A DNA stretch of 64,000 bases, taken from contig JAUCBJ010004579.1 in NCBI GenBank assembly GCA_032718475.1, forward strand, positions 21,527 through 85,526, given 5' to 3'. Numbering within the stretch: position 1 is the first letter of the stretch; each line of letters starts with the position of its first letter. This DNA is from Nemertoderma westbladi (Eukaryota; Animalia; Xenacoelomorpha). Positions 1,398 through 52,621 of this stretch are shown here, one piece after another. The notes under the pieces were generated by a model. It did not search any database. It was not told the DNA's origin and saw nothing but the letters and a program-made list of their open reading frames with translations. The position numbers and the translations under genes are program-made.

Positions 1398-3149
1398 TTA
1401 TTTTGTAAAAGTTATGTGTATGTCTCCTGCAATCACGTTATTGGTAAACAGCGATTTGAAGTCGAGTGCATTGAACCGATTCGCTTCCACCTGCACTGAA
1501 TTCAATGACTTGGTTGCAGCTGCATCAACCTCGTGATGTGCGACTTTCTCCGCTCGTACGTTATCCCCACCTGACATCACCGAGGAAAGAATGTTGCTAA
1601 TTTTCTGGTTTGAAGCATCCGAAGGACGGATATAACTAGACGTCGTGGACAGGCTTTTATGGCCAAGTTTCATCTGTGCGTAGTTCACAGGCACGTCATT
1701 GTCTACGAGTGATTGTGCTGTAGTCTTGCGGCAGCTGTTAGGCGTTATTTTACGTCCATCACTCTTTAAATCGGCGGTCTCGACAATAGATTTAAATATT
1801 ATTGCAAAGTGGTTCTTCCCTGTTGGCTGGTCGCAGAACCAAAGGGATTTGCCTGACTTTGGATTGCCTGGTTTAGGACGGACCCAATAAGGTGCTTCGG
1901 ACACTACCTTTCCATTAGGAAATCGTTTAGCAATATAGAGTTCATGCAAGGACACTGGACAGACAGACCTATCCTCCGGGTATTCCCACGCTTTATTTTT
2001 ATATTGTCGAGGTTGGGTTAGGCCATTCCGTGTCTTTGTTCTTCTTTCTGTCATTACTAAAAAGTTTCTCTTTGTCTCGGGGCAACACTTTTTGATGACG
2101 TCACCGACTTCCATGTTCCTCATTTCCAAACCTGGCCGCATCCCGAACTGGGTAAGTAGAACCATGTATAAGGTGTTTCGTAGCTGCGTTGGTGTTTCAA
2201 CACCCAGAACTCCCTTATTCTTCATTAATTTGAAATCATACCTCTGTAGGGCACTGCTGGCATTCGCAAGATTTCCCTTACCTTGTGCCTTTAGTTCACC
2301 CATTCGCGTAGCAAATATTTTTTTTGTTTTCTCAAATTCTACCTGTTTTAACACATCTCCAAATCCAGCATCCTTAAAGTGTCTGATAATTCCATAATAG
2401 TAAGTCTTCAGAGTAGTTGTTTCAAAAACGTCATCTTCACTCTTATTGTACCGCATTATAAACTCATTGAGGTAACATGCCATTTCCTTAACATTTAGGT
2501 CTTTGATATCTTTATTAACTGGTGGATTTCGTAAACGCAAGAACTTCGTGAAGGCTGAGATTGACTGCTTCGTAGACTCGACTGTATTGGGATTTTGATT
2601 TTCACGTAAGTACTCATCCTCTGCAATGATAGGTCCTAAACGACTCTTCTTACCTGTGGTCCCATCATTGACCTTTGTTGTTAAGACCTCTTCCATTGCT
2701 ACCTGTCTTATGTCGACTTCTGTAGAGACATCGAAATTGTCGGTATTGTTATCTTCGACCTTTGATACCTGACTGAGGTTATTATCTTCTTCGGCCATTG
2801 ATATCTGACTCAGCATTTCGTCAGTTGCAATATCGAAATTGTCGCTAATAACCTCTTCCATCATTGATAACTGACTCAGCATTGCGTCTGTAGCACCATC
2901 GAAACTATCGGTATTGTCCTCCTCAACCATTGTAGCCTGCGTTAAAAATTCTCCATTGTCATAACCATCCAGACAGATGGCGTCATTGTACTCAACCGCC
3001 TCTGTCTTATAAGTGTCCATCTCATTGAACAATCTGTCTATGAAATTTGTATCCATTTTGTAAACCTTATCTAAGAATTTACAATTTTTAAAAAATATTC
3101 TAGAACGAATAAAAATTTGTTCTAGAACATAATTAAAATATATATACAT
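1398..3149 (-). CDS. Crypton/DUF3504-like tyrosine recombinase (likely start at MDTNF, ~3056)
   Basis: Catalytic motifs in order: QFGMRPGLE (R), ERRTKTRNG (K), CPV..Y, TGKNH, ITPNSCRKT (HxxR with H->N), LGHKS (H), TTSSY (Y). Intronless, uninterrupted ORF; the acidic N-terminus has DxFD.ATDxMLSQ.SM.EE repeats. Confidence 0.88.
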   Translation of the reverse strand: MYIYFNYVLEQIFIRSRIFFKNCKFLDKVYKMDTNFIDRLFNEMDTYKTEAVEYNDAICLDGYDNGEFLTQATMVEEDNTDSFDGATDAMLSQLSMMEEVISDNFDIATDEMLSQISMAEEDNNLSQVSKVEDNNTDNFDVSTEVDIRQVAMEEVLTTKVNDGTTGKKSRLGPIIAEDEYLRENQNPNTVESTKQSISAFTKFLRLRNPPVNKDIKDLNVKEMACYLNEFIMRYNKSEDDVFETTTLKTYYYGIIRHFKDAGFGDVLKQVEFEKTKKIFATRMGELKAQGKGNLANASSALQRYDFKLMKNKGVLGVETPTQLRNTLYMVLLTQFGMRPGLEMRNMEVGDVIKKCCPETKRNFLVMTERRTKTRNGLTQPRQYKNKAWEYPEDRSVCPVSLHELYIAKRFPNGKVVSEAPYWVRPKPGNPKSGKSLWFCDQPTGKNHFAIIFKSIVETADLKSDGRKITPNSCRKTTAQSLVDNDVPVNYAQMKLGHKSLSTTSSYIRPSDASNQKISNILSSVMSGGDNVRAEKVAHHEVDAAATKSLNSVQVEANRFNALDFKSLFTNNVIAGDIHITFTK

Positions 3150-3535
3150 ATATATTACGAAATGTTCTAGAACATAATTAAAAAATATATATATTTCGAA
3201 ATGTTCTAGAGAACTTTACACAAACATTAAAACTAGTAAACTAGATACATTTTGGAATAAAATGAAAATGCTGACACGGGCACCGAACTCTAGCCTAAAA
3301 ACTAGCTAGTATAAAAATGCAATGCGTACACACTTTTTGACCAATTATTTGACAGTTTTTTATTTTAGTACAATTGTCAATTTACATTTCTGAATAGTAA
3401 AAAGTATTTTGACATCCGCCAATATTTTGTTTAAAAACTAGTAGCTACAGTAGAAAGCTCATTAGTAGTTAGCTCATAATTTCATCCAGAGAAATATATA
3501 GTTGAAAATTAAATATTATTTTTGTTATTTTTTTT

Positions 3536-3785: not shown

Positions 3786-5662
3786 AAATGAAGACTGAAT
3801 ACACATACACATACAGTACATCCAGCACATACAGTACAATCGCAATGTTAACTGTATTGTGAATACAATACAGTAAACTGTATTGTATTATTATGGAATG
3901 TACTTGTTTATCCATAGCAACTGTTTTGAACATGCGAAAAGCGGGTTCCGGGAAAATAACCGAGTTGAAAACCCGCTTCTTACTATTAAAAAGCGGGCAA
4001 ATAACTTCTGGGTGGGTAATAACCATATTTCGTAAGATATATTTTAAAACATATATTTATTAATAACTGAATACTTAATACTGAATAACCAGATAACGGA
4101 AAGACAAACCGAATTGAAACTTTTAATTACTAATAATAATTGTGGTGAGAGGTGATTGGAAATCAAGGATTATGTATGTTATGGTAGGCACAGGCAAATG
4201 AATTGATGTCTGTTGAGATGTATTGAAGGAGCACTATTCCTTCTACAAGACTACTACAGTTATGCCCTTGTGTAATAGCCTAGGGACTAGCTTGGTCAAT
4301 GACTTTAGCTTGCCTTGTTAGTAATGTACAGTACAACTTCAAGAAATATTATTGGGCACGGCTGCCCTTGCCATGCCTTAGGCTCTATGGGGGAGAATGA
4401 ATCAGGGTATGAATTTACAATGTTAATTATGTTTAAATCAATTAAAAATACATTTATTAACGCAAATCACTTGAAAAAATAAAAAACTATAATGGAATGG
4501 GGTACATGGATTCCAGATATCTAATTTCTGTGCAAAATAACTTTAATCGTGCTAAATAATTAATTTCCATGGAGAGACCGTTCAAAATGACTCAACCATA
4601 CAATTTAGCTGAAGATATTAATTTAGATTATGGCTTCCGACATTTATGGCTTCCGACACACACACAGACTTTTGAAAAACGGCCATAGTATAATTATATC
4701 AGTTCGCTGATGACTCGCCCCACATACCTGAGTCGGAAACGCCTGTAAACTCATTATTAATCTTTTCTGTGTCGGTCATCATAAGTGGTTTGCCATATTA
4801 GTTAAAATTAGTTTCTATATAATTATTCCCTATATATTTTGTGTGATCCTGATTTGCTGAAGCCACGTAGAAATTATGAATTGCGAGTTCCATTCAGAAA
4901 TCGAAGTTTGCCTGTTACCAACAGGCATTTTATTTTTATTTTATCTGTACAGTATCATACATTCATTCATTCATAATTAACGGTTCCCTAATTCGTAGGA
5001 ATTAGAGATCCAGATATAATAAGAAGACCGTTAGGACTGTAAAAGTATTCACTATCTATGTATCTCTATGTATATCGGGTGAACTCCTCCGAAGCTATAG
5101 CTCGTCCGACAATGAAAGTTATATCAATCGACGCAGCTCAACCCCAGTCGTGGAAAAAAAAGTTTCGAAAAAAATTATCAAAGTTTTTTTTTATTTTGAA
5201 AAATAGCCCGAAAACACGAATCAATGATAGAAACACCAGCTGCTGGTGCTCATGAGGGCCCAGTAAGCTACTACTATTTATTTAATGGATAGGCCCAAAC
5301 TGCAGATGTACCAAAATATTGCCAATGTGACCAAAATATTAGTAGGCCTAAGGTGTTTACTCAGTCACTCTATCCCAGAAAATAAGCAAATATAAATTGC
5401 TAATGTATTACACCGCCAGCTTAACAGGTCTTCCCAGTGAATCCTATGGGAATATCTATAAGGTTACTCGCTGCTATGTTAGGTGGGAGGTCAGCGGATT
5501 GAATTATAAACACTGGGCCGTTCAAATGTTTTATAGGTTAATAATAATGACATGTAGAGTCTGGTATTACTTTCTCTCAGACGGTAAGCAAATGGGGCGG
5601 GGAAGGACACACTAGCCAGCTTACTGGCGTTTCTAGTTATTATATTATAAAGCCATACCCAT

Positions 5663-6123
5663 TGTATCGAGTTTGATAAAACTCATTTTATTAATGAAAG
5701 TAAAATCCAAGAAAAGTCATACTTGTCAACCATTCAGTCTATAATCAGTTATATTTAATTGTTACATCTGTACATTCAGACATTTGACCATGAATCTACC
5801 GTTTGATGATGCGATGCTGATGCTAATGTTCACAAGTATTGACACATTTACATATTAACTATAAACCGGTAACTATTGCAGTTTGCAAAAATATATATGC
5901 CTGTAGGAATTATTTCCCGTTAGCGGTAACATTATAGTGCTGCACAGTACAGCAGTTTGTAGGCTACGGTAGTGCAGTAAGTAGGCCTAAAACCAATAAC
6001 AGTTAATAACCCTACAACATCAGATACAAGATCATTATACTGCATAGCTAATAATAATAATCGGGTTTTTTAATAGTCCGCCCAGATGAAGTTTTAATCG
6101 GTCCACTATCAGACTCTGCTACA
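5663..6123 (-). repeat. BEL/Pao 3' LTR (461 bp)
   Basis: Direct repeat of 13405-13865; AATAAA near the U5 end; the pol ORF stops inside it at 6048. Confidence 0.97.
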
Positions 6124-9100
6124 TCCTCCCGGCTCGAAACTATATCAGGAGTTTCATCAATCCGTTTCTTCCTATAATTAATCCGATCACCCAAATCATC
6201 CGAATCCTTGGGAGAATCTTGTAAGCGCGTTTCATAATATCTCTCAAATAGATGGAGACGCTGAACTGGGCGCGAAAATTTGCCCTTTTTAGTTTCAACA
6301 GTCACTGTGCGAATTATACCATCTTTACTGGGATGAGTTTCTGTCACACGACCCATAGGCCAGGAATTACGTCGAGTTCTATCTTCTGAAATAAGTACAA
6401 TGTCATTGATCTTTATTGGTTCCTTCTCAAGTTGCCACTTTTGTCTTGGTTGCAACTGGTGGAGATACTCTGTCTGCCAACGTCGCCAAAAGTTATCTAA
6501 TAATCCCTGTAAATACACATATCTCTTTGTCAATGAAACTTCTTTACCACCAAGATCATGCAAAGGACGCAATGGTCTTCCAAGTTTTTTTTTTTTTTTA
6601 CTCAAAAGCCTCCATATATTATAATATTAACAAACAATAATTCGAATATAAAAACGCACCAAAATAAGTACAAATATAACCCACCACCAGCTGACTCAAA
6701 CTGTTACCTAGCAACAATACAAACAATACAAATTGGTTCAGTACCCATCACCAGTCTGCCACTCAGCCACTGCCAGTACCCAACAAACCCGCCAGACCTC
6801 TAACTTCTAAGCCGTCCCAGGGTCCGAGTCCGCGTTCGCCCACACAATGGACGCGTCCGCCACCGCTGCCCGCACCGGTCTTCTAGCGGCCGACCGAAAC
6901 CCACGGAGGCACATCAGGGACGACCGGAGTAAGGCGAAGTTGATGCGTCGCCGCACCCACGCTACCGACTCCGGGTAGGGAACCTGTTGTTTCTCCGACA
7001 GCCTCAATGCCAGCCTCAATGGTCTTCCAAGTGCTAAATGAGCAGGTGTAATAGGTAGTATGTCCTTCGTATCTGGACTATGATAGGTCAATGGCCGTGA
7101 GTTTATCATCGCTTCTACATCAGTGAGAACAGTGTACATCTCAGTATAAGTCAATAATGACTTTGACAATATCTTCCGTAGGGGTTCCTTGAGACTACGA
7201 TTAATTCTTTCCCAGTAACCTCCTCGGAAAGGACTTCGTTCCACAATAAAATTCCATGATATCTTACGCTCATTCATAAATGATGCAATAGCTTCTTTGT
7301 CTAAATGTTTCCAGATATTGTCTGAAAAATTTAGTTTGAAAACTTTGGAGGCTTTCTTAAACGTTTTCTGGTTATCAGAAGTCACTGTTTTACAAAGACC
7401 TCTACGATTTACCATTCTACGAAAGCATTGTAGAAATTCAGAAGTCTCCATATTTAAAGCTAATTCAAAGTGACACATACGGCTAGCTGCACAAGTGAAA
7501 ACACAAATGTAAGCTTTATGTGTAGAAGATCCTTCTTTGATAAGTAGTGCACCAGTAAAATCAATTCCAATATTCCAAAATGCTGGTGATATCTGTAAGC
7601 GTTCAGGTGGCAAGTTGCCCATAATTTGTTCCATTGGGACAGTCTTATGATGGTTACAAACATTGCAGAGATGAACTGCTTTTCTTATCTCATGACGTGA
7701 ATTAATAATCCAATACTTTTGTTTGAGGAGTGATAATAAAACCTCCTGTGGTGCATGTTGATTTGAAATATGCACCTGTAGTATAAGTTTTTGAACCAAA
7801 CCTTCACCTTTAGGAAGAAGAATTTGATGTTTAGCAGACAAGGGTAGATCGGAAAATTCAAGTCGCCCACCAACTACCAACAATTGTCGATCAATATCAT
7901 ATTGAGGATTCAAAGGCAACAAATGATGTTTATTAGGCAATGGTTTATTCTGCGATAATAAATTATAAGCCTCCATGAAATAGTGCTTCTGCAGAATTTT
8001 CCACCAATGCATTTCTGTGGCTTCCATCTCCTCCAGAGTAACCAAATAAGGATGTAATGATGTCAGTGTTGTCGGCTGTTTATCCAGAGCCACTTCATCA
8101 CTGTTCTCAACCCCCTGGGACAATTTCTTCCTAGCTCTAGCTAGCCAACGAAAGCATCTCACAGTAAATCGAATAAGATTACTAAACCTCCCATAATATT
8201 CAGTAATATAGTTACTAAATTGAGTAACATTTGCTGATTTGTGGTTAGATACAAGGCATATAGATTCTGATGCCTCATCATCCTGAACCAAATGTTCAGA
8301 GCTATTTATGGTAGGTGTTGACAAACCTTGAATAATTCTTTTCACATATTTATGTTGTTTAATAGGTCTCTTCTCTGGTAGTTCAATTTCAACATTCAAT
8401 GAAGATTTCGGCCAATCATCATTATTCTTAATAAGCCAGTCTGGACCTTGCCAATAAAATGCACTGTCTTTCATCTCCATTAGACTGGTACCTCTAGAGA
8501 GGAGATCTGCTGGGTTTTGATCTCCGGGCACAAATCGCCATACTTCGATAGGACTTAGGTCATGTATCTCTTGTACACGATTTTGAACGAATGTGTTCCA
8601 TGTGTAGCTCTCTTTCGCTATCCAACCCAATGCAATTTCAGAATCTGACCATAAATAATAGGAGTTTATATCGACACGTTGATGAAGAGCATCTAAAATA
8701 TACTTAACAAGACGCGCTGCCAGGACAGCACCAAGAAGTTCCAATCGTGCTAACCTGAGTCGTTTAAGTGGAGCTACTCTTGATCTCGCCATGACGAAAT
8801 GAGAAGAGGTATTGCTATCACAGAATTCAGTTCGCATATATACCACTGCTCCATACGCAACTTCTGAAGCATCAGAAAAAGCGTGTAATTGTACTATAGT
8901 TGGGTTTCCTTTATAGAAGAGTCTAGGAACCTTAATCGTTTGAAGTAGATAAAGTTCACGTTCCCATTCTCGAAATGAGTTAATTATGCCATCTGTTAAT
9001 TCGTCATCCCAACCACATTTGTTAAGCCACATATTTTGCAAAATAATCTTGCCTCGAATTACAAAAGGGCTAACAAATCCAAAAACATCATAGATCTGAG

Positions 9101-10845
9101 ATATCTTACTGAGCATCAATCTTTTTGTTCGAGAATAGGTGCTCAAATCAGTTAATCTGTCAGTGACAACCAAACTGAAAGTATCATCAGTCTCATAATT
9201 CCAACCAAGACCCAGTGCCTTAGTATTTCCTAAATCAGATTGATCAGTAAAGCTCACAAAGTTTCCTACTAAACGATCTTTCTCTGGTATAAGTGATAAT
9301 AGTTTAGCCGAATTCGAACCAAATTTTGTTAGCTCATAACCAGCCATTTTACACATATCTACTAACTCTATATATAATTGCTCAGCTTGAATCTCATTGT
9401 TGGCTCCACCTAACAGATCATCAACATAGAAACTGTCAGATGCTTCTTTTGCAGCCACTGGAAACTTAGCTATCATGTCTGGTCTTTCACAATGATGAAT
9501 TTGTATTCTTTGTGCTAAATAAGGACAAGGACTAACTCCAAAATCAACACAGTCATACAATATTTTTCAATGGGTTCATCTTTATTATTTCGCCACAAAT
9601 ACTGCTGATAACAATGCTGATCTGATACCAGTTTAGTTTGTAAAAACATCTTGCGTATATCTGCTACAAGAGCTATAGGTTTTGTCCTGAAACAAAGTAA
9701 AATTTGAGCAATATCAGGTTGCAGAATAGGCCCAGGTAGTAGACAATCATTCAGTGAGTTTCCATTCTTGTCTTTGGTGCTTGCATTATAAACTATTCTA
9801 ACTTTGGTAGAAGAGCTGCCTGGTTTATAAACTGGATGATGTGGAAGAAAGAACTGTTCACCATTCATGAATTGTTCTTCTTCTTCAGCTGAAACTTTAT
9901 GGGCAAATCCCTTTTCAACATAATCATTAATAGTCTCCCTATAAATCTGCTTCTCAACTTGAGATTTCTCCAGTGATCAAGTGATTCTAATAGTTTCTTA
10001 GCTCGATGGTAATTAGATACAAGAGTTGGTGCTTGAGGCTTGAAAGGTAGAGCAACAGAATAATGGCAGTTCTGGTCATCATAATTAAGTGAGATTTTGA
10101 ACTGCTCCTCTGCCTCTCTTTCATCTTTGGTAAGCACCTTGGAAGAATTAACAATGCCAATTGTTTCTATATCCCAAAACCGTTCCATTGAATTCAACAG
10201 TTTTTCATTAATCCTGGTTTGGGTAATATAACATGACTTTGGTCTTGGTTTAATTCGCTTATTGCTAGTATCTGGGCCACAAACAACATATCCAAAGACT
10301 GTGGCCATAGCGCAAGGAAGTTTATTGTTAGAAGGGTGACGAATAATATCGCCAGTAATAAATTGAAAGAAATAATCCATTCCAATTAAAATGTCCAGTT
10401 GTTCATAGCCATGTGGAAATTCGTCAGCAAAAAGTAGACCTTGCAGATGTGTACACTTTTCTAAATTAATAGCCAAGGGTTGAATTTCCTTACAGAAATC
10501 GGGAAATGACGCTGCCGTCATTTTAAAGTATAAACTTGAATCGGTTTTGGAACATAATCCAAACTCAACTATATCTGCATATTCAACAATAGTTGATTTA
10601 CCAAAACCTGTTACTTCCATTTCTTCAGTTGACACAATGTTCAGATCTAAAGATTGGGCAATACATTTTCGAATAAAAGAAACTTGGGAAAAACTATCAA
10701 ATCCCACACGCACTTCACAGGGAGTTCCATTATCTAATGGCATAAGCATTACCTTAGCTGTTGGAGTGATAAATTGAGTTTTAAGGTCAGCCTTAACTCC
10801 AAGTGATATAGCTTGTGTTGTTACTTTATGACTACCAGAATTCAT
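6048..10845 (-). pseudogene. BEL/Pao pol (protease, RT, RNase H, integrase), frameshifted and interrupted
   Basis: FDSFSQVSFI/DILIGMD protease; FLPHHPV..TKVRIVYNAS; ADIRKMFLQ; FYVDD; LHAFSDASEVAYGA..RLELLGA; WSDSEIAL; NPADLLSRG; IDFTG..SDN..GYWER; FWRRWQTEYL..WPMGRV. Frameshifts near 9960 and 9555; insert at 6586-7016. Confidence 0.93.
6586..7016 (-). mobile_element. 5'-truncated RLE-type (CRE-like) non-LTR retrotransposon with poly(A) tail, inserted in the BEL integrase
   Basis: 16-bp TSD CAATGGTCTTCCAAGT at 6570-6585 and 7017-7032; T14 tract at 6586-6599; GC-rich coding end WVRRRINFALLRSSLMCLRG, typical of animal CRE-like C-termini. Confidence 0.88.
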
Positions 10846-13202
10846 TATAGCCTTCTTATCAACATGCAGTAAGGGATGGCTGGTCTACGACAGTCCTTCT
10901 TGATATGGTTCAAACCAGTACATAAAAAACATGCTCCCTTATCAGCAACTATTTGCCTTTTTTCAGCTGTGGTAGCTTGAATAAATTTATAACAAGATGA
11001 TAAAAACCGACATTTTTTCTCACAAAGTGGACACTTGTATTCAACTTTAGCAGTACCTCTATCAGTATCCACTTTTGACTTGTCCCAGTTCTTAGAGTAT
11101 GAACCAGATCCCTTAAATCCTTTTGGCTTAGTCCCACTATCAGACCCTACTGCTAATGTTTGAGAAGAAAACTTTCTATCCTTTTCTTTCAAAGGTTTTT
11201 TATCATCTTTATTATTATTATGAGTGTCTTTCTTATTGTATTCATCTCTCGTAACATCTTTCCGTGCTACCAGAGTTTGCAACCAAGAAATAAATTCCTC
11301 ATATGTGGGCATTGCACCATCTATATGCTTGTCATCAACTTCCTTTTCCCATTCTTCCCGAATTTTTTCAGGGAATAATGTTTCCATGGAAGATAGCAGA
11401 AAGTTGTCAACAGTTAAATGGTATTTAGATAGATCCAACATGACATTTTGTATTGAATCACATAACTTTCGCAATGCAGAAATATTATCTTCATCAGTAA
11501 CTTTTGAAAAGTTCTGAAGTTTTTTGATTAAATGTTTTACAACAATTCTTTCCTTGCCATAAAACTTTTTAACACTTTCAAGAGCCAGTTTATAATTGTT
11601 CGCAGATATTTCCATATCAATAATACAGGTAGCAGCTTTTCCTACTAATGCCTTCTTTAAGTATGTCATTTTGTAGAAATTACTTACCTTGTCATTATTG
11701 CCTACTATAGCCTCGAATTTTGAAAACCAGCATGGAAATTCTGAATAGGAACCATCGAATTTTGGTATGTCTACACCACTAGGTAGACCACCTCGCATTC
11801 GTTCCACTTTATCGGCATCACGCTTCACTTGGGTAAATGTTTTATAGCGACCTATTGCTTGACGAAGACTATTTATGTCCTCCAGCAGTTCTGAATGACG
11901 TTGATCAATTTTTGTTATTGCAGATTTACACATTTTATGTGTAATAAATCCTTCACACTGTTCGAGACGTTTTTCTATAGAACGTAGATCGAAATCTAGT
12001 GCATTTGGATCCTTTTCATCTTCAGAGAGTTCATTTACTCTCCTAACAGCTAACCAACAGGGTTTAGCTAGACGAATATATTCATCAATTTGATTTGATT
12101 CCTCAATATCTTGTTTCCTCTGAAACATCACTGAGTTTATTCTGTGCTTCAATTGTCTAAACCGGTGTTTAAACTGCTGAAAATCTACAAATAAATCATT
12201 TTTAAGTTCCTCATTTTCCAATGAAAACAGACGCTTGTTTACAAATTTATCAGCATCCTGTAGTTCCTCAGTAGCATCATCAATACGATGCTGCCAAACA
12301 TGCACATCCATTTCATAAGGATCAATATCAAAATCCATTTCTGCATATAATTCTTGAAGATGGGACATTATTGACCTAAATTTATTCTCAATTGATTCAG
12401 CTGAATTGGATACAGAGGATAAACCACCAGAATCATTTAAAGGAGATCCCCCTTGCCCATTAATTGGAGAGGATGTACGTTGGGGTTGGGGTTTTCTGTT
12501 AATTGTTTGAAACAACAACAGTAAATCTCTGCGATCCTGTTCCCTCCGATCTCGTTTGAACAACAACAGTAAATCTCTGCGATCCTGTTCCCTCCGATCT
12601 CGTTCTCGACGTTCTCTTTGTTCATCCAGCTGCATTTGCATATTGAAGAATTGGGTCATCATAGCTGATTCCAGCGGCCCGGTACCGGTAGCAGGTCCGG
12701 TACCGGTAGCAGGTCCGGTACCGGTAGCAGGTCCGGCACCGGTGGCAGGTCCGGCACCGGTGGCAGGTCCGGCACCGGTGGCAGGTCCGGCACCGGTGGC
12801 AGGTCCGGCACCGGCAGCAATCGCATCGAATTCAGTTGTAGGCCCACCCGTTGCAATAGATAGTGGATTTGCTGCAATAGATGGTGGATGCGCTAAGGGA
12901 TCAATAATATTATATGGACTACGTTGGATTGGTGAGAAAACCTGGCTCAAATTGTAACCAGGTCGCTCAGTGGATTGCGAATCTGCAAATCCAAAATTAA
13001 AGTTGTCAATATCGTCATTACTTTGGTCTGAGGCGAGGAAGACTCTCAAGCGATTCCGTTTTTCTCCAGTAGTTCCGGAACACAAGAGACCTCTCTCTTC
13101 CAAACAACGATCCAACTCCAATGGCGTCAGATTGCCAATGTCTTCCAGAGCGGGTAAATCAGCCCGTCTGTCTGACTTCAGATAATATGGTGACTGCGCC
13201 AT
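10845..13202 (-). pseudogene. BEL/Pao gag (SAP-like N-terminus, DUF1759-like capsid, Cys/His knuckles), frameshifted at its end
   Basis: LTPLELDRCLEERGLLCSGT..RL; IPKFDGSYSEFPCWFSKFE..KMTYLKKAL; CPLC..C and CFLC...NHIKKDC. The HPLLH motif of the third knuckle is in the next frame, implying a deletion. Confidence 0.88.
12679..12815. repeat. 18-bp in-frame minisatellite in BEL gag encoding (GPATG[AT])n
   Basis: CCGGTRGCAGGTCCGGYA, about 7 copies. A separate 48-bp duplication (RDRREQDRRDLLLLF x2) lies at ~12510-12605. Confidence 0.9.
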
Positions 13203-13404
13203 ATTATTACCAGTTTAGTACCGGTACCGTACCGTTAAGAAGTAGGCCTAACGGAAACGGCCCACAATAAAAATAAACTGCAGGTCCAGATACTTCAATT
13301 AAAAAGAAACCGGTATCCGTATCATTAGGAAGTAGGCTTGACGGAAGCGGATTGCAGCAAAATAAACTGACTAGTTAATATCAATAACATTAGTTACTTG
13401 TGAA

Positions 13405-13865
13405 TGTATCGAGTTTGATAAAACTCATTTTATTAATGAAAGTAAAATCCAAGAAAAGTCATACTTGTCAACCATTCAGTCTATAATCAGTTATATTTAA
13501 TTGTTACATCTGTACATTCAGACATTTGACCATGAATCTACCGTTTGATGATGCGATGCTGATGCTAATGTTCACAAGTATTGACACATTTACATATTAA
13601 CTATAAACCGGTAACTATTGCAGTTTGCAAAAATATATATGCCTGTAGGAATTATTTCCCGCTAGCGGTAACATTATAGTGCTGCACAGTACAGCAGTTT
13701 GTAGGCTACGGTAGTGCAGTAAGTAGGCCTAAAACCAATAACAGTTAATAACCCTACAACATCAGATACAAGATCATTATACTGCATAGCTAATAATAAT
13801 AATCGGGTTTTTTAATAGTCCGCCCAGATGAAGTTTTAATCGGTCCACTATCAGACTCTGCTACA
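13405..13865 (-). repeat. BEL/Pao 5' LTR (461 bp)
   Basis: Direct repeat of 5663-6123, followed on + by TSD CCCAT. Confidence 0.97.
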
Positions 13866-15014
13866 CCCATACAAGTGTAAGAATTAAGCTCTCTCTGGCC
13901 TGTACATTTCCTTACAATCTAAAACAATAATTTATTGTTGAATTTATTATAATTAGATGCCCTTTAGGGCTTCTTGCTGTCAAAAAACATCTGTTTGTTT
14001 GTTTGTCTGTGTGTGTGCGTGCACGCACATTGATATTGGCTTGGTAGAGAACGTGTTTTACATGTTGGGATGTCAAGTATATGTGCATCTTCTTTCAATC
14101 CAATATTCCACTAATAAAGCAGTCAGCTGTAATCACAACAGCTGTCGGGCAGACTTATATTGATAAATATTTTATTAATGAAACCATTATTGAGAGAAAG
14201 CGCCCATTGTTCTGGTTTCGTAGAATATTATTATTAGGATACATGCATATTATATGCTTATATTAAATTGGTTGCTTCATAGTGATGCCGGATTTGGATA
14301 TGGTTAAATATTTGTTTATCTTTTCGCTTCAGAAACCGAATTAAGACTTAGTTTTTTCGGTTTTTTGTCTTATAGACGGTCTTCTTATAGTCTTCTTTTT
14401 AGTCTTATCTGGGAGGATAAGTCATTCCAGAATCCGACAAGGTTGCACACAGTTGACCGAGTCCTGTCATTTTGTTTGTGAAAGTTATAAAGATAATATT
14501 ATGATTGGCCAGAATGGCCAAGAAATCATATCATATGTTTTCATAAGTTGTTGCATTACTTGGTTTCCTGTTAAAAAATTAAATATAGCATTAGTGGGAG
14601 CAAGGACTTTGGTGGGGGGGGGGGGGGGGGGGGGGGGGTCTGAATAACTATGGTTTAATAATACTATAAGTTCAGTGTTATAAAGGATGACTATTAGGAC
14701 GTAGTGGTCTGGCTAAGTGTTTGTAGTGCCATAATAAGGTTTTATTAACATTAAGTAAGTTATCTCACATTTTATCACAGGGTCTATCTGAGATTTATAG
14801 GGTAGGCCTATGCTTACTAAATGGGATTCTGTCCACTACATGTATATTGGATTTTTAAGGTTACTGGTTTGCTTTGCCTCCGGGATGACTTGGTGATGGG
14901 GTTATTGACTATTGTAGCTCGGGCTTATAAGGTATGTTCTATAAGAGTCTTCAATAAATATATTTTTAATGTAAATAGGACAATATGATAATGCTCTCCA
15001 TAGCGTAAAATATA

Positions 15015-17715: not shown

Positions 17716-19282
17716 TATTTTAAATCCTCATTAAATTCCGCTCTATTGTAGACGTAATAAAAAAAATTCTGACCCCTGAAATTGATGACCTGAAATTCAG
17801 GTCATCGATAATGAGGTGGCCAAGTCATCGATTGGGTGGCCAGGGATAGTGACACATTGATTTAGCAGACCCCAAAAAATGATGCCTTTCACATTGCCAT
17901 CCTCGATATTTTTGTCACTGCTGCTGCTGATCCTTATGGATTGTGTTTTTGGGTGTTGTGGTTGTTGCGTTTGCACCTGCCTCTGTTCTTGGTAGGAAGA
18001 AATGCAGAACTAGAAGTCGAGAGGGAAACCTATTCACAATCCGATGCAGGTGGGATCTTTGGTAATCTTGGTGAGATTTTTGGTGTGGTGATCTGAGTGG
18101 AGATGGAAATTTGCACAATTATTAATTTTTATTGTTTAATTTAGTTAATTATTAGTTATCTTTAATTAATTATTAGTTATTTAGGTAAGTTATATTATAT
18201 ATATGCCTCGTTTCTTATAAGAATTAAGAATTGTTGCGGTCACAATGCATCCATTCAGCGTATTTATGACTGTAATTTGTTGTGTTGGAATTGTTAACAA
18301 TATCATCATTTTATACACTGTTGCAAGTTCATCCTTGTTGCGCTCCAAAAGTTTTGCTGTATTTTTACTGCTGTTGGCATTCGCTGATGGACAACATGTG
18401 ATTTCTTTGATAATCTACAACGAATCTTACGGCAATAGTTTAATCATAACTGATGTTCCTGAAACATTTAGCTTTTGGGTAATATTTTTATGTTATATAT
18501 TAAATACTTGGAAATGGAGTAGCAGCTACATATCTATTGGAATGACGGCGGCGATAACAGTGGAGCGTTTCATTGCTACATATTGGCCTATCTTATATCA
18601 CAATAAATGGCGTTTAGCACACACAGTTGTTTTGTGTGTATTAGCTTATGGGCTTGGTTTTGGTATTATAATGGGTTCTCATTTTGATGGCTATGAAGCA
18701 AAATATGATCTTGTTTACCACCCAGTTCTAAATGTTACAAATATTTTTTACACCTGTATTTTACACTATCAACGTATCCTCAATTGGGGCATATCTTGGG
18801 TGCTCTGGGAAGCAGTTATACCGCCAATAAGTGGTAAGAGGTAATACTCCAATATGCAATAGGTGAAAACACAACAGGTAAGACAGTAAGGCCTGAAGGT
18901 ATATTGGTAATGCAATGCAGCAGTAGTGTTGCTCAAGCGTCAACTGACAGACGTACCGGTAAGATGAAGAAACCAAAACCGTAAGGCCAGATAAGTCCAT
19001 GCCAAAACTAAACTACATGTAGTAATACATAAACAGACATGAGGCCAAAGGCCCATGGCGCAACTAGTTTTTTTTCCTGTTCTTAGGTTTCAGTTCGTAA
19101 ATCTATAATACGGTTACACTAAGAACTACAAAGTTTGGATTAATACATGTTTATACATGCTACAGTTAGCACGATTATTTATACGCATAAAATTATCTAC
19201 TAATTGTTCAATAATACTTATAATTGTATAATACGTATTGTTCTATTTGATACTGGATGCTTCAGAACATGAGAGTGATAAG

Positions 19283-20740
19283 CTAATCATCAGAGTCAAA
19301 GTCGCATACATATTCCCTCAAGTAGGCTGGCGGTAGGTGTCGACGTTTGGAGCGCCGGAGTGGGGGATCCGCTTCAGCTGTCTGGTGAGGTTCAACATTG
19401 GTGAGATTTGTAGGATCGCCATCCATGCCAGGACCAATGAATGAGTAGGAACCATCATCAGAAGAGTCAAAGACATCAGTGGGTTTGGTAGGTATATGAT
19501 CATGAGAACAGTGTCCACCAGGAACCTTGTAGCATTCAGAAGTTAAAACGCGATACGAATGTTCTCGGAACTGGTTCCTAGTGAATTTTCTTAGAAAACA
19601 CCATTTCCCATTGATTGAACAAACGATATAACGAGGTCGGCTGTGTAACTTAGATCCATCTGCGTATACGTAAACAATATCGCCAACACAAATTGTTGAT
19701 GTAGGGTTGGACCTGGAACCATGGCTCTTTGAACCAACACTGGATGGATGGTTTAACTGGCGAGAAGCATGTTGGTTATGGACGATGGATTCATCATCAA
19801 CAGGGATAGCACTGGAATTAAATTGGTCTCTTTGAAAGAGAATTTCGCGTGATGAGAGACCTTGATGCCGAATTCTGGAATTTACATTGGCAATGACAAT
19901 AGCTAGGAATGTTGGGGAGATGGGACCACCTGAAGGGTTTACTTTCAACATCTCTCCTATGACCTCCTGAATAGCACGTTCGGCGATAGGGTTTTTGTTA
20001 GGATTTTTGGCATCACCAAGTTCCAGTGTGATATTATATTGCGAAAGTTTGGTATCTTTTACAAGGGAACGGAATCCTGTAGCAGGGTCTACGCGAACTA
20101 CAGCAGGGGGACCATTACATGGGCAAAAGTGAATACATAGGCGGATTAGGCCATCACGTAGACTAGTGGCAGTTTCATCAGATAAGAGACATGCGGAGGT
20201 ATATGATGTGATTGATTCACGGATGACTAATATATACTGCTTTTCACGCCGAATGACATCAGCAGCAAATGATGATCCCATATGAAGAGGGGATTTGGTG
20301 GTAGATTGTGGAATTTCACGTCTAGGGGCAGTCGCAAGCGATGCACATTGGTGGCAATTGGTAACAACAGAAGAAATAGCTGGATCAATATCAAGTGCAT
20401 AGAATGATCTAGAAAAAATTTTCTGGAGTTGGAATGAAGATGGGTGATTAAGTTGGAGATGGAGTGCAGTTAATAAGCCAATGAGAGATGGCCTTGGGAC
20501 AACAATTTGTTCTTGAGCTCCGATGAAGGGCCGTTCCCTTCTAACGACAACTAGTCCATCATGGGATAGTGAAGCTACCCCTAAGTACCGTTTTGTATCT
20601 CGAATGTTGGTCAACTTCTTTGAGGGACGGGTGCCTTGGAGTAGGTGAGCCTTAACACGATTTAGATCTGGACATTCAGACTGTGTGGTTAGCCAAGTTG
20701 AGCGAGTTGTATATAATGGATGGTCAAGATCATCATCCAT
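19283..20740 (-). pseudogene. Integrase of the Troyka-like element (frameshifted from RNase H)
   Basis: H..HP..CHQC zinc site; FAADV / RVDPATG / NPIAERAIQE DDE core; C-terminal RRSKR..PAYLREY. Confidence 0.88.
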
Positions 20741-20779
20741 CTCACAACTAGCCGTCGAGCGAATAACTGGAGATATAGA

Positions 20780-22713
20780 GGATTCATGAAGAAATGTGCA
20801 TATCTGGCGAATCGAAGGAGAGGTGCAAAATCTGGGATATTGCGACTTTGAAAGTCAGCTACCAAATTTTTTTGTCCAGGTAAATGGAGCAAAGACACTT
20901 GGTATCTAGATACGGCTGAGAGAAATGTTGTTACTCTGGGGCTGGATGAGAAATTACCACGACAAAGCTTGCCAAAGGCTTGTATGCAAGGTTTACTATC
21001 AGATAGTACCCGAGTACGGTGATGTGATTGAATGATGAAGGAGGAGAAGTGGTTCAGTGCTGAGGAGATGGCTAGTGCCTCTAACTCACATGGTAATCAT
21101 GTGACTTGGTGTACCTTTAACTTAGCAGAAAAACATCCAGCTAATAGTAGTTTATTATTACGACGTATGAAAAGCACTGCGCCTAATCCATCGATAGCAG
21201 AGGCAGCATCTGTGACAAGCCAAAGTTCATCATCAGCACTGGGCAATGTAATGGATTTGCAACTCTTTAATGCAGCTTGAGCTTTACGGAAGACAGCAAT
21301 AGAATCCTCACACCAATTAACCTTATCTTTAGACAAATGTCCAGCAGCCAGTGAATCAAGTGGAGCAACCAAAGACGCACAATGGGGGAGTACACGTGAC
21401 AAAACCTTATAGGCACCAATGAAGGAGCGTACACTAGTGACAGTTTCAGGTAAAGGGCAAGTGGCCAGGGCAGTGATAACATGTGGTGAAGCGGAGAGTG
21501 AACCAGCTGACCAGACCCATCCAAGAACACTGGTGGTCTTGGGGCAAATAACTGTTTTTGATGGTGAGAGTCTGAGGCCACATCGATGTAGAGCATCTAA
21601 GACTGCAGACCAAGTGTTGAGAACATCTGAGATGGAATTCCCACCACAATAAAGGTCATCGGCAAGTTTCACCACATTTCCAGTAATCAGTAAATCTCCG
21701 AGGATGCGGCTTGTCAGCTCTTCAAGGGCAGTTTCAGAGCCTGGCATGCCCATAGCACATCGTCGATAAACACGAACACCTCGATAAGGTGTTACAACAC
21801 CACAGAATTTCATGGAGCCTTTGCTTAATGGAATCTGGAAAAAGGCACTTGATAAGTCTGTTTTAATTAAGAATTTGAATCTTGAGATAGCTAGTAATGT
21901 GGAGTTCACATCAGGAAGTTTTGCAGGTTGGGGCTTACAATACCGCCCAACATCGGCAAATGCTGTAACTAAGCGGAAGCCTCCTCGGGGCTTCTTGACT
22001 AAAAACGATGGATTTAAATATTCAACAGTAATACCTGCATCTTCTGGAGTTGAGAAAACACCTAGTTTCTCATATCGGTCAAACTCATCCTGGAGGGTTT
22101 GCAGATTTTCACGCCCATATAAAGGGAGCCGACCTTTCCTTTGAGGAGGGGGTACCGGCCCCATGTTTACAACTGCCTCATATGGTCCAGCAGCACCATT
22201 ATAACCAGGTAATGACCCATCAAATACATCGACATAGCGGTAAAGAATGTCCTGAAATTTACTACGATCTGATGGGGATAGTAAGTTATCAGGGTCAAGT
22301 TGTAGTGAGCTGAGAATATTTTGAGTGGTGACACTGTGGTTGTCAGATAGGGAATGTGGTACCTGAGTTGGACGCAACTGACTCTCGGGAACATCTGCAG
22401 AAGGAGTAGCAACACACACATGGCTGTTGCGTTGGATACGGATTGGGTAGTTTGTTTCATTTGGGATATGAATCACATTTGAAGTGCTGGATAAACACAT
22501 TGGTGAGAACCATGGTTCGTTATTACCACTATTGGGATCAATATGAGGAGAAATATATATGTTGGGAGTATCACGTAACGAATCAGGGACTTCTAACTCT
22601 AAGGAGCTCTGGGGCCATACAATTGATAAATGAGATGGAGCCCTTAGCAGCGGTGAAGAAATTGATGTTTGACGAACAGATGTTCTATGGTGGGATGTAG
22701 GCAGGTCAGCTGA
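20780..22713 (-). pseudogene. RT and RNase H of the Troyka-like element
   Basis: [55 protein letters not shown] (W->TGA at 21097), [16 protein letters not shown]. Confidence 0.88.
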
Positions 22714-24099
22714 CTACTTAAACTGGCTACCATCTTGAAAAGTGATGAGTTGGAGTGAAGTGCGTAAGCTTATATCGTTCCGGCAAAGAAATGGTGCCCC
22801 ACCAAGCACATCACACCCTAAGTTACTAACTACAAGGGCATCAAAGGAAAAGGATAAGTTACCACGGGTAAATGTGGTGAAAATCTCGCCAACAACTCCG
22901 AGCCTGGATACACCATCAGCTTGACTAGGGATCTGTTGGGAATTTGGATATATGGGTATGTCCAAATTCTTTAGAAAGGTGGAGTTAATTAGGTTAGATT
23001 CTGCACCAGAATCAAGTATCATGCGTAGTGGTGTAGACTGAAAGTGTAAGTCAACATAAGGGGATCTGACAACACTGACACGGGATATGGCTGGGGGGTC
23101 ATCCACTGTACATTCAAACATATCTTGGTGAATGTCAGTATCCTCATCAATAACCTCAATGGTTCGAGTGCGGACCAAAAATCGTTTATCCTGGTCTGGA
23201 AGGAAGTGGCATTGGCTGAGAAAATGTGTAAAATCACTGCGACCAGCCTGTTTGCATAGTGGGCAAATTTTTTGCATGCGAGGTTGTTCATGTGTTTGTG
23301 GCCGAAAGGGCTTGGGGGCAGTAGGTCTATGTGAATATTGTTGTGGGCGACTAGAAGTGGATCGCATAGTACGTACTTCATCGCTAGCTTGGAGCTCGTC
23401 TAATAAGGATGGGAGAGCCTGAGAAATCTCAGGTTTTATGGAAGACAGAGTCTGATGTCGCAATTCTGTACCATAACGCTGTTTAACTAGCTTTGGTAAA
23501 TCGTTGTTGATTAATCGTAACCAAGTAAGAACAACAAGGTTTTCAACAGTAGGACATAATTCCTCATCTTCAGGAATGGGGACCCCATGGTGAGAAATGC
23601 CACCATCCTTTTTAAGCAAATTGTCATCTACAAAGGCTACCAATCTTTGGTATAGATCCTCTGGTTTTTCATCATATTCAAGCTTAATGGATGCTAGGTC
23701 CAAAAAATGTGCACCAGAGATTTGAAATCCAAAGTGCAAACGTATGGTATTCCAGATAGATTGGAGAGAAGTGGACGTTTTAACTATTGAATTTCTAGAT
23801 ACAATGGGGCAATAATTTGCTATTTGCCCTAGCATAAGTTCTAGGGTTACTACCTTTTGTGCTGCAGTGCGGCGCGATGTAGCAGGAATATCAGTCCCAT
23901 CATCCACAAAGCCACGGGTAGGAGAAAGGCGAGATTTCTTTTCCCAGTGGGCAGAATCAAGGGTGAATGGGGCAAAGGCTGGGTCTAAAGCTAAAGTGTA
24001 TAAAAGATTCTGTCTCCATGTTTCAAAGGTATTAATGGTTTCAACTTTAGAGAGAGGTATAATTTTTGGAGTACGTAGGGAACCTGTCGCTGTGGACAT
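22714..24099 (-). CDS. Gag + aspartic protease of the Troyka-like element
   Basis: CPLCKQAGRSDFTHFLSQC knuckle; ILDSGAESN..DVLGGAPFL protease. Ends at an in-frame TAG. Confidence 0.85.
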   Translation of the reverse strand: MSTATGSLRTPKIIPLSKVETINTFETWRQNLLYTLALDPAFAPFTLDSAHWEKKSRLSPTRGFVDDGTDIPATSRRTAAQKVVTLELMLGQIANYCPIVSRNSIVKTSTSLQSIWNTIRLHFGFQISGAHFLDLASIKLEYDEKPEDLYQRLVAFVDDNLLKKDGGISHHGVPIPEDEELCPTVENLVVLTWLRLINNDLPKLVKQRYGTELRHQTLSSIKPEISQALPSLLDELQASDEVRTMRSTSSRPQQYSHRPTAPKPFRPQTHEQPRMQKICPLCKQAGRSDFTHFLSQCHFLPDQDKRFLVRTRTIEVIDEDTDIHQDMFECTVDDPPAISRVSVVRSPYVDLHFQSTPLRMILDSGAESNLINSTFLKNLDIPIYPNSQQIPSQADGVSRLGVVGEIFTTFTRGNLSFSFDALVVSNLGCDVLGGAPFLCRNDISLRTSLQLITFQDGSQFK

Positions 24100-24611
24100 A
24101 TCGGTGTTCTATACGGATACTGGATATTGGCTGACCAGTATACCAGGAGCTTTTTTTTGTGGTAGGTACTGGGGTACCGGTATATGTAGTAATAATGCTA
24201 AGTAGAGTCGGATTGGCAGACTGAGCTGTACGACGTATATCAGTCAGTATATCGATGTTTACATAGACAGGCAACTGTGACCTGATAAGATAGGTATGGT
24301 TATCCAGCAGTCCGGTAAGGACGGTAATTATTGTCTGTGAATCCGAATCTGGTTATGGCTAGGCCCTATAGGCTAGGTAATATTCACAGTTTGGTTGTTG
24401 GTTGTCAGTTGGCTCAACCAGCAACCGGTAGTGGTAAGTAGTACAGTTCTGGGTTAGTTCTGCAGTTGAGACGCGGTATTAGGTAGGCCTATATCACAGC
24501 CTATGATTTAGGCTACGACGGTAAGAAGATATACCTGCTGACCTGTATGCCATATGCTGACGCACTTGTCGTGTTGAGATGAAGGAGCAAGGCGAGGCAA
24601 AGGTAAGATAT

Positions 24612-24622
24612 CGCTGCCACCA
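24612..24622 (-). promoter_or_regulatory. Primer-binding site complementary to a tRNA 3' end (tRNA-Leu-like)
   Basis: TGGTGGCAGCG directly abuts the 5' LTR. Confidence 0.85.
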
Positions 24623-25437
24623 CGCCAATAAGTGGTAAGAGGTAATACTCCAATATGCAATAGGTGAAAACACAACAGGTAAGACAGTAAGGCCTGAAGG
24701 TATATTGGTAATGCAATACAGCAGTAGTGTTGCTCAAGCGTCAACTGACAGACGTACCGGTAAGATGAAGAAACCAAAACCGTAAGGCCAGATAAGTCCA
24801 TGCCAAAACTAAACTACATGTAGTAATACATAAACAGACATGAGGCCAAAGGCCCATGGCGTACCAATTTTGGTAGTTGGATCCTTAAACGTGATGATTT
24901 TATTGCGAATAAGATTGAGAGGTATAAAAGCTGACCAAGCGACTAAAACGCTATTAACAACTACAATACTATTCAATATTTTGTTGTTACCCCGAGTCAT
25001 TCAAAATATTGTCACATATATAACAAATGAATTCTATTTCGACAGTTATTCAGCATTGAATAATGGAGCAGAAATTTTTAATGGGCCAAACATCATTCAA
25101 ACAGTATTTTGGGCCATATTGGCGGATTTAGCTCGCATTCTCAATTCCACAATAAATCTGTATATATTACTCATGAACCCAATGTTTAAAAGTGAATTTT
25201 TAAAAATGTTGCATTGCAAAAAAATACACACAAATAAATGGTGTACTTCATTAACGAAAGATATAATATTTATTAGATTATAATGAAGCCCTGAAAATAT
25301 GTAACGAAATAATATAATTAGTATTGGTATTTTTGGTAAATAATATATAGAAGCTGACAACATCGAGCATAAAATATACAAAATATATTACGTCATTATA
25401 AATATATGCGATTAATAAGTAAAACAATGTCAATGTT

Positions 25438-27649: not shown

Positions 27650-30600
27650 ACTGAGTGCATTTCCAATCTGCACAAGTATTCCGAGACGTTGGCGAAGGAA
27701 TGACGTTGCTCGTGGGTCACCAGAGGATAGTGTGATCCTATTCCCAATTGTTTTAATGAAATTCGGAGTTGCTTCACCCATTCCGCCAGTTGTCTCGAAA
27801 GAGACGGGGTAAAAGTGTGCAGAATTGGATGATGTGAGCTCGGAATACGTGCTGTTCTTCAGGGTTTCCTTGTGGTTGGCGACAGAGGGTCCTTCATTGA
27901 TTGCAATTGCCAAGGAAGAATAGGCCATTCGGTGCGCACAAGTGAAGTCCCACATGGCAGGCTTTTCAGTAGTCCATGGGATGAGATTAATGCCATCAGG
28001 TCTTTTATTGTCAGAAAGTGAAAAAAAATCCTATTGGTTCAAGGGTTGATGGTGTTTCAGCCGCTTATTGCCTCGTTACATAGGCGGTGTCTGGCCTGTC
28101 GCCCAGGCAGTTTTTTTACATACCAAAGAGTGTAGGCCAAGATGGTCTGAAACTTCACCACACAAGCATGTATGTTCAATGTGTACATCAGCTCCAAGTC
28201 TGATTGAGGCATAGATTCTTAGCTGATCATCAGAAAGGCGTATACCCAGGTTTCCAGATGGGAGGGCTTGTAGCCAATCACCAGCACCAGGGGTGGAGAC
28301 TAGTGGTTGTAGTTGCTAGTAGTAGTTGTTGTCACACGAGTTCACTAGTTGAGAAAACTTCTGTTCATTAAGAGGTTTACACCAGTCCCTTTGGCTGATA
28401 GATGAAGGATGATCAATGGAATTTACTTGACCTGACCATATCTGGACATTGATCTTCATTGTCTGACTATAATTTTCACTACTACTACTACTAGGATCGG
28501 CATGCAGCATTGCAGCTGCAGTTTTAATACTGTTGTGCCGGCTTGTCGATAAAATTGCGCTGCCACAACTCCCTATCACCCATGACATTTGCTAGATCAT
28601 CAGCATCTTCAAGGCCAATGTCCTTTAAGATGCGTCTCAAGAAAGTCATGGGCTGTCCAACATGCTTATTCACTCCATGAGGCTGCCAAAGTACAAGATT
28701 ATGCACTGGCTGGTCCTCACGGCGAAAGCAATGTCCTGCAAAGCGGAGGCGATTTTGTTCTACTGTCAAGCTTGGGGGAACCAATGATACACCTCCAATG
28801 TTATATAGTGTCTGGTTAGAGATGTGTGCATTGTACTTGACACAATGAACCCGGCGTAGCATTCTTGTGAATGTGCCATCCAGAGATTTGGTGTCCTCCA
28901 GCATGGACTCCCATAGAGGAGTACTGGAATTACTGCTGCTCTAAATAATCGGACCTTAAGTTTCCGATTAATTCTCGGTGACTTCCAAATCCTGGAAAGC
29001 CTATTCAAGGCTGCCCATGCCTTTCCCTTACGTATTCGAAGGTCCTCACCTGACTTCCGGATCCATGATCCCAGGTAACAGAAGTCGTCCACATGCTCAA
29101 GCATACCATCCTTTGAGCTTATGCTCATCCGATCAGAGACTTGCTGAGGACTTTCAAAGTTAACTGTCAAAATTTTGGTCTTTCTGGAGTTAATAAAAAG
29201 ACCAACACTAGAAACAGCATGTTCTAATGAGCTGAGGAGCCGTTGGGCTCCCTCTAGTGATTCTGGGAGTACTCCTACGTCATCAGCAAAGTCTAGATCA
29301 GTTAGGTACTTGGCAGGATTTCCTCGACTTCTGGAGCCAGTAGGTGGAGTTATCATCACCCCATCATCATTATGATGATCTAAGGACATGCGTAGAACAT
29401 AGTCAACCACAATTATGAACAAGAATGGTGCAAGTGTGTCTCCCTGGAGGACGCCCCATAACAATTCAAATGGTTCTGTGTCACCGTCAACAGTAGACAC
29501 AAATGTTGACGAACCATCGTATACTGATCTGATTGCTGCAATAATTTCATCAGGAATCCCATATAATGAAATTATGCTGAACATACGTGACCGAGAGACT
29601 GAATCAAAGGCCTTGATTTTCACATTGCCAATTTGAACCATTGAGAAGGCAAAGGACGAGGTTAGAAGTGCTAGCAATAGATGCACAATGGGCAGATTGA
29701 GCCATATCACAGAAACTAGGTATTCCTAGGCCTCCCATCCTAGCAGGGAATGTTGACTGGTTCCATTGAACGTCGGTTAGAGAAATGTTAAGGATGGAGA
29801 CAAGGGCCTTCTTCTTCTTCTTCTTCTAAGAGATCGGATCTTTCTGATCAAGGCGAACATCTCAGAACATTCAGCAGCGTTGGCATATGGAAACAGTTCT
29901 TCAGGAGAAAGATCGCGTTGTGACTCCCAACAGTTGATAGCCTTTCAGTCATGTGGGTCATTGCCTCTAGCTTTTTGTTCAAGCTAGATGCAAGGGATAC
30001 AGGCCTAGGGGTGCCCCTAGAAGGTCAAGGTTATCTCATTGTACAATCCTGATTCCAGGGCATATGCGGTCGAATTACAAAGCAATGTGATGTTGGTTGG
30101 GCCGAAAATCGAAAGTTCACCTTTGGTTGGATTTAACATAAGGCCAATGCTGGAGCATTGATTCTTGAACATATCTATATCAGAGAGGACAGTTTTCCAG
30201 TGATCATATGCAGAGATTTCATCCATATATCCGAGTTTGAACTTTGATTTCAATGAAGTCAAGTTCTTGTGGATCCCTAGGCAGAAGCCCAATCCGGCGT
30301 CTGGGGCACCTTGCTGAATGCCTTCTTCAGATGAGAGGTTGTATTCGCCATATATTAAACTGCTTGGCTGCTCATAGCAAAGTTTATAAGCAAACTCATT
30401 GATACATTCTGCAATGTGTGTGCGGCTGATGGTGTTGTAAGCATTTGCAAAATCCAACTTGATGAAGACATTGTCATCTTCAGCAGTGTTAAGTATGGTC
30501 CTGGCAGCATGTACAGCTGCTTCCAGGCCTCCTTTGACCCCACATGACATGTGGGATGCTGTTCGATTGTTGAGTATAGAGATTGCTGCCTTTGCTGCGA

Positions 30601-52460: not shown

Positions 52461-52621
52461 TACCCCACAAGGGTTGTATCTTGAAATATTCGATTTATTG
52501 AATAATAAACTAGGGTTTTTTGACCGCCAACCTCGAAAATCTTGCTCGTTGCGCTCGCTCGGCCATAAAGGGGGAAAATAATATATTTCATATAAGCAAT
52601 ATTATTTCACAAAATTGCTAT

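Follow-up and report, generated by a model that had tools for sequence, protein, structure and literature searches.

How does an LTR retrotransposon begin reverse transcription when the bases behind its 5′ LTR offer no place for a tRNA primer? The question is raised by an element on the minus strand of the window, by which we mean the whole stretch of Nemertoderma westbladi DNA analysed here (64,000 nucleotides). The original prediction, made from the letters of the sequence, was that this is a BEL/Pao element that lacks a tRNA-type primer-binding position (PBS) and primes itself in the manner of Tf1.

The element is a full-length LTR retrotransposon that runs from 13865 to 5663 (8.2 kb) on the minus strand, with the proposed primer site at its 5′ end; its features are collected in Table 1. 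The two LTRs, aligned as a BLAST pair, differ at 1 of 461 bases (position 13662), and the place of the AATAAA signal suggests that U5 is short. Pfam matches along the polyprotein follow the order DUF1759 (gag), DUF1758 (protease), RT, Peptidase_A17 (E 7e-46), Integrase_H2C2, rve and DUF5641, and the RT carries YVDD. Frame changes near 10.85-10.88, 9.87-9.98 and 9.52-9.57 kb interrupt the coding region, as does a nested insertion, at the joint of which 16 letters fit either side. BEL/Pao elements (Belpaoviridae) are defined by a target-site duplication and by LTRs 0.2-1.2 kb long whose ends are TG...CA; here we found LTRs of 461 bp with TG...CA ends, a 5-bp duplication and an empty site, together with the BEL/Pao gene order (Gag, protease, RT, RNase H region and integrase) and Pao-type domains. 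Membership in the Tf1/sushi group was rejected, as it needs a Ty3/gypsy chromovirus-type polyprotein and that of the element is Pao-type. What the window contains is therefore a full-length BEL/Pao insertion of young age.

A homologue search with the element protein gave 1,125 matches at E ≤ 0.001. Among the matches listed, PF05380 was present in 120 of 120 homologues, the nearest proteins were 39-43% identical to the element, and the nearest named relative was a protein of the soft coral Dendronephthya gigantea. In a tree of 68 sequences (drawn from 226 full-length matches as the 12 best plus every fourth one after them, with locus L001 and the window added), the element clusters with 11 other sequences (support 0.996) and has the Dendronephthya gigantea protein as its sister (0.969). 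One published supplement contained none of four motifs looked for in it. A SAP domain was found at the Gag N-terminus of three of the five closest long relatives (P0002, P0003 and P0004), and the sole domain match in the Gag start of the window (12801-13202) was a weak SDE2_2C (E 0.004).

Elsewhere in the window, a 605-aa frame on the minus strand (1398-3215) with DUF3504 and Phage_integrase matches, which we take to be a Crypton-like tyrosine recombinase, lies near 56-nt inverted arms at 952-1087. An inverted pair of RT/DUF6451 sequences (28469-29616 and 35044-36203; 1.16 kb, 95%) flanks a Ulp1-type protease frame at 31418-32077. A satellite made of about 570 units, each 20 bp, occupies ~52500-64000 and is extremely skewed between the strands, and more skewed tandem arrays are seen at about 37-41 and 45-50 kb.

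Table 1. Positions of the element's features and of the LTR/leader helices in the window.
Feature	Position	Strand	Remarks
5′ LTR	13405..13865	-	461 bp, TG...CA; BLAST pair with 5663-6123
3′ LTR	5663..6123	-	BLAST pair with 13405-13865
5-bp target-site duplication	left copy 13866..13870, right copy 5658-5662	-	
Purine-rich tract, PPT-like	6124..6134	-	adjoins 3′ LTR
AATAAA poly(A) signal	13429..13434	-	24 nt ahead of LTR end
gag-pol region, five open pieces	6048..13214	-	
447-bp nested repeat, integrase region	6570..7016		absent from contigs of runs X1-X3, which skip over it
Primer-binding position, 10 nt, H1 3′ arm	13395..13404	-	no TGG; TTCACAAGTA
Exact PBS complement, H1 5′ arm, predicted self-primer 3′ end	13571..13580	-	
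H2 LTR arm, 10 nt	13594..13603	-	exact register with H1
H2 leader partner (leader nt 24-33)	13372..13381	-	
H3 LTR arm, 8 nt, alternative to H1	13565..13572	-	complementary to leader 13393-13386
H3 leader partner	13386..13393	-	
TATA-like motif of the original prediction	13598..13607	-	6/8 at best; overlaps H2 arm
TATA-like box	13632..13639	-	7/8 consensus positions; +30 = 13609
LTR-internal PBS near-copy, rivals PBS for primer core	13458..13476	-	within 42-nt block 13455-13496

Other copies of the family were read in contigs from sequencing runs, X1 belonging to one study (P1) and X2 and X3 to one sample of another (P2). Contigs of all three runs bridge the same LTR/leader junction, and all three runs also contain the empty site with a single copy of the target sequence; since the same runs carry both the junction and the empty site, the insertion is polymorphic. 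The X1 contig shows 0 differences from the window over 13150-13434, and the X2 and X3 contigs show 2 differences each over their pieces, of which one apiece is listed (13640, 13338), lying outside the three helices H1, H2 and H3 that are described below. The contigs of runs X4 and X5 stop short of the junction. One sample among X1-X3 may be where the window itself came from, and contigs drop rare variants, so that a small share of the copies may carry a different PBS. A PBS deletion in this copy alone was rejected, since contigs from both studies show the junction unchanged. Together, the single difference between the LTRs, the empty site in X1-X3 and the junction unchanged in the contigs of two studies demonstrate that the family has been mobile recently with this junction.

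An 18-nt PBS matching the 3′ end of a host tRNA is a typical trait of BEL/Pao in the ICTV description, in which membership rests on the polyprotein, and it is not found here. No TGG occurs in the first 116 nt downstream of the 5′ LTR, the earliest being at 13288, and a tRNA ending in CCA therefore cannot pair or prime there. As the original prediction held, the 5′ LTR (13865-13405) is followed directly on the minus strand by TTCACAAGTA (13404-13395) without TGG, the exact 10-nt complement of these bases lies within the LTR at 13580-13571, and the 3′ end of the 10-mer is flush with the LTR end. We refer to this pairing as H1.

To place the flush match against a background, 20,000 dinucleotide shuffles of the LTR were used; a flush 10-mer at offset 0 was obtained in 39 of them and a 10-mer complement at offsets 0-3 in 106. 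The self-primer rule of Neumann et al. 2019 requires a match of 10 bp or more placed 0-5 nt beyond the LTR (excerpts of PMC6317226), and the element passes it with 10 nt at offset 0, as do 141 of the 20,000 shuffled LTRs. Within the element, the LTR contains complements to 8 of the 7,269 internal 10-mers, and two of the eight are the PBS and its in-register partner. These results support a non-random origin of the flush LTR complement, and one flush 10-mer match alone could be a coincidence in a large scan.

Three tRNA-type junctions served as controls, all with TGG at offsets 0-3, and in the two with a readable LTR pair the self-complements were only 2-4 nt long. The Gypsy neighbour in the window (LTRs 24623-24861 and 18822-19060) has TGG at offset 0, and its self-complements do not exceed 4 nt. 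A distant BEL element from host-like contigs of the record G015 (L006; about 28-34% identical to P0001, with an LTR end uncertain by 5 nt and no clean target duplication seen) has TGG at offset 3 and self-complements of at most 4 nt, and a second BEL-type gag in G015, which has no LTR pair, shows TGG two bases after a CA. With these controls the test proves able to distinguish tRNA-type sites; they do not amount to evidence of covariation. As a separate observation, the Gypsy-type element (18822-24861, minus strand) has 239-bp repeats that are 99.6% identical with aligned ends that are not TG...CA, and a Rhodopsin-family GPCR fragment on the plus strand (18221-18844) runs into its LTR at 18822.

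A same-clade relative with an LTR was sought in metagenome, genome, two viral and archaeal PF05380 scans, and none came from these. One same-clade locus was obtained from the metagenome scan (L001, pol only) and one distant BEL element without an LTR pair from the genome scan (L002), and the two viral scans held no relatives. PF05380 was matched in 3 of 401 archaeal genomes in each of two overlapping draws, the same three both times, and these matches gave L006, a BEL element with an LTR pair, and fragments, all for control use only. Two archaeal genome records hold BEL/Pao contigs (G015 C3, 778 kb, and C4; L002), which are probably host contamination.

Comparison of the LTR with the leader gave 19 complementary runs of at least 6 bp. 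The two longest, of 10 bp each, share one diagonal, these being H1 and a second perfect complement (H2) that had escaped the original prediction, and between them lies a 13-by-13 stretch with 3 pairs. The third-longest run is H3 (8 bp), and the three together sit within 39 nt of the 461-nt LTR. Two 10-bp runs on one diagonal were seen in 0 of 20,000 shuffles, by a statistic picked after the pattern had been seen, and in only 4 of 14,780 control windows (the LTRs' own opposite strand excluded), all four overlapping the real junction. By a looser measure (23 or more pairs in 33), 45 of 20,000 shuffles and 6 unrelated control windows did as well. In another arrangement, leader nt 12-33 could form 22 of 22 pairs with LTR bases on either side of the primer core, with two gaps and the core bulged out (28 of 5,000 shuffles), at a predicted -13.0 kcal/mol vs -20.3 kcal/mol for H1 and H2 combined.

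H3 includes the pairing of CATTAG with CTAATG, which the original prediction had also pointed out. The two segments are indeed complementary, over 8 bp (13572-13565 with 13393-13386), but they lie on the wrong side and would cross H1 with linkers of 0-1 nt, and on this geometry a role as an extension of the primer helix was rejected. H3 would be an alternative pairing to H1 that cannot coexist with it as an extension, and the accessory CATTAG helix is doubtful.

The length of a self-primer would depend on the transcription start, for which 13580-13582 had been proposed from a TATA-like TTTATAG. The motif is present at 13607-13601, 21-27 nt ahead of 13580, but as a TATA box it is weak, agreeing with 6 of 8 consensus positions at best; in a consensus scan the best register of this region (13605) would place transcription initiation at about 13575, within the proposed primer, and the start at 13580-13582 is doubtful. 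The spacing from TATA to start is usually about 30 nt. The match at 13639 would thus predict a start at ~13609, just ahead of H2, although the AT-rich LTR has several further 7/8 matches, which makes this weak evidence for the box. As the TATA match at 13639 is the better of the two and H2 is in register with H1, we lean slightly and tentatively to a start near 13603-13611, with a primer of about 33-41 nt; the alternative, a Tf1-like primer of 10-12 nt from a start at 13580-13582, seems possible and rather doubtful. What counts against the start near 13603-13611 is the mismatched middle: if a 33-nt primer were fully copied in plus-strand synthesis, these 13 nt (3 of 13 pairs) should, under the standard scheme, homogenise, and they have not. 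Tf2 uses alternative starts that include or omit the self-primer (excerpts of PMC5341516), and by this precedent both starts may be used. Among the runs listed as containing element sequence there is no RNA run.

We also considered whether H1 forms in predicted folds, and these do not favour it. For starts at 13602-13640 (28 folds) the mean pair probability was 0.00 for H1 and 0.80-0.95 for H2, and for starts at 13580/13582 (8 folds) that of H1 was 0.01-0.31. The core pairs of H1 were high (about 0.6-0.97) only for starts at 13580-13584 with the RNA ended at 13380, and forcing H1 cost 2.4-5.3 kcal/mol above the minimum. With the primer core, the competitor inside the LTR (13476-13458) gave a predicted duplex of -12.0 kcal/mol vs -11.2 kcal/mol for H1. 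The 42-nt block 13455-13496 is common to another repeat family in runs X1-X3, with 3 differences, and this sharing hints at a function; in that family a similar poly(A)-signal context comes after the block. The energy of the leader duplex is unusual relative to shuffles (26 of 2,000 as low) but not relative to windows from inside the element, of which 117 of 722 reach as low a value. The computations therefore do not show H1 forming; a chaperoned switch onto the PBS is conceivable.

The proposal of a self-priming BEL/Pao element is thus borne out in its Pao identity, in the lack of a TGG-type PBS, in the non-random flush complement and in the junction seen in two studies, but not in the folds. 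Weighing these results, we consider it likely, from the sequence, that the element uses its own RNA, by the 5′ end, as the primer of reverse transcription. The LTR bases ending at 13571 would pair with the ten bases that follow the LTR. Cleavage after 13571, for which the element's RNase H is the likely enzyme as in Tf1, would then release a 3′ end, and reverse transcriptase would extend this freed end of the LTR-derived RNA. With a start near 13603-13611, H2 would clamp the RNA 5′ end to the leader, and the competitor inside the LTR might hold the primer core until it switches to the PBS. We infer the in vivo pairing, the cut, the enzyme and the start site in this scheme. A primer built by splicing was rejected: of 428 candidate GT/GC-AG introns, none on removal created a complement of 8 nt or more across the junction, and the primer arm is contiguous in the DNA. 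A broader conjecture, which we regard as unlikely, is that many elements of the clade have a Gag SAP and that an animal BEL/Pao clade evolved tRNA-independent priming apart from Tf1/sushi and plant TAR, with a ~33-41-nt primer docked by a distal 10-bp clamp and switched from an LTR decoy to the PBS, thereby gating reverse transcription.

Of the competing explanations, the one that survives best holds that the LTR/leader complements are structural, clamping the RNA ends for strand transfer, packaging or translation control, or else are a relic of inverted copying, and that something else is the primer. An end-to-end clamp is conceivable since the LTR segment also lies at the RNA 3′ end; H2 folds best (0.80-0.95) while H1 does not form, and the match of leader nt 12-33 to the LTR (22 of 22, two gaps) resembles a switch or a copy that has been rearranged. 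A structural role leaves unexplained, however, that H1 ends flush at the LTR boundary, where the 3′ end of a primer must sit, and it leaves an active family without an identified primer; we judge it improbable.

Still less probable to us is priming in trans by a small RNA of the host, for which the best candidate would be a tRNA 5′ half with its end in the anticodon loop, the LTR match being secondary. The first 7 PBS bases fit the loop of tRNA-His(GUG), and in an archaeal tRNA-His loop, positions 32-38 of the tRNA pair with PBS nt 1-7 with one G:U. Anticodon-loop priming exists in Copia elements, but in excerpts of the same sources half-tRNA priming is reported for Copia lineages only (PMC10886601, PMC6317226). 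None of 35 distinct tRNAs called by ARAGORN, mostly archaeal and not the host's (taken at 30 loci, which account for some of the 63 matches in G015), paired with the PBS over more than 8 nt with G:U allowed, ARAGORN called 0 tRNAs in the whole window, and Rfam gave 0 matches on 13100-14000. A primer in trans would, moreover, make the two in-register 10-bp LTR matches a matter of chance. Chance complementarity in AT-rich sequence, in a family that lost or degraded its PBS, is very improbable: a single 10-mer match is expected at 0.2-0.7% per element in a scan covering many elements, and the LTR has complements to eight internal 10-mers, but the PBS and the partner in register with it account for two of those eight, none of the shuffles puts two runs on one diagonal, and the junction is common to other copies of a recently mobile family.

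That BEL/Pao elements are normally tRNA-primed, as the original prediction assumed, agrees with the ICTV profile of Belpaoviridae, which gives an 18-nt tRNA-Arg/Gly PBS and tRNA priming and describes replication as poorly understood (PMC8742986), with Achilles, a BEL/Pao element with a tRNA-Tyr PBS (excerpts of PMC4580426), and with the two BEL-type junctions read here. In the openly accessible text that it covered, our search found no paper on a self-primed BEL/Pao element. Excerpts of PMC554778 and PMC3118150 held no PBS discussion, the word 'primer' had 0 matches in PMC6238403 and PMC8556966, and excerpts of PMC8220671, PMC5443660, PMC5408687 and PMC3601003 stated nothing on BEL/Pao priming. 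The element is likely an instance of a known self-priming mechanism that would be new to a superfamily described as tRNA-primed. If this holds, self-priming would reach a third LTR-retrotransposon superfamily, suggesting repeated origin, and the case would bear on whether hairpin priming is ancestral or derived; such elements might escape control exerted via host tRNAs and tRNA fragments, and annotation based on the PBS would misread intact families as defective.

Self-priming has been described for Tf1 and Tf2 of Schizosaccharomyces pombe, Tj1 of S. japonicus, sushi and Tcn1 (excerpts of PMC7175516, PMC4600332 and PMC6317226), and in Tf1 the PBS is paired by the first 11 nt, after which RNase H cleaves, separating nt 11 from nt 12 (excerpts of PMC7175516 and PMC4600332). 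As in Tf1/Tf2/Tj1, Tf1/sushi and Tcn1 (Ty3/gypsy, Metaviridae), the PBS of the present element comes directly after the 5′ LTR and matches its own LTR, with no tRNA match. Unlike the Tf1 group, the element is BEL/Pao, its perfect match is 10 nt, and a second in-register helix suggests a longer primer. For the plant Ty1/copia TAR lineage, including Houba and Osr-1, self-priming is predicted by the sequence rule (excerpts of PMC6317226), and the TAR lineage and the element pass this same rule while differing in superfamily and kingdom. With Belpaoviridae the element shares the TG...CA LTRs, the 5-bp duplication, the PPT-like tract, the gag-protease-RT-RNase H-integrase order and the Pao-specific Pfam families, and it differs from the ICTV Belpaoviridae and from Achilles in having no TGG-type PBS.
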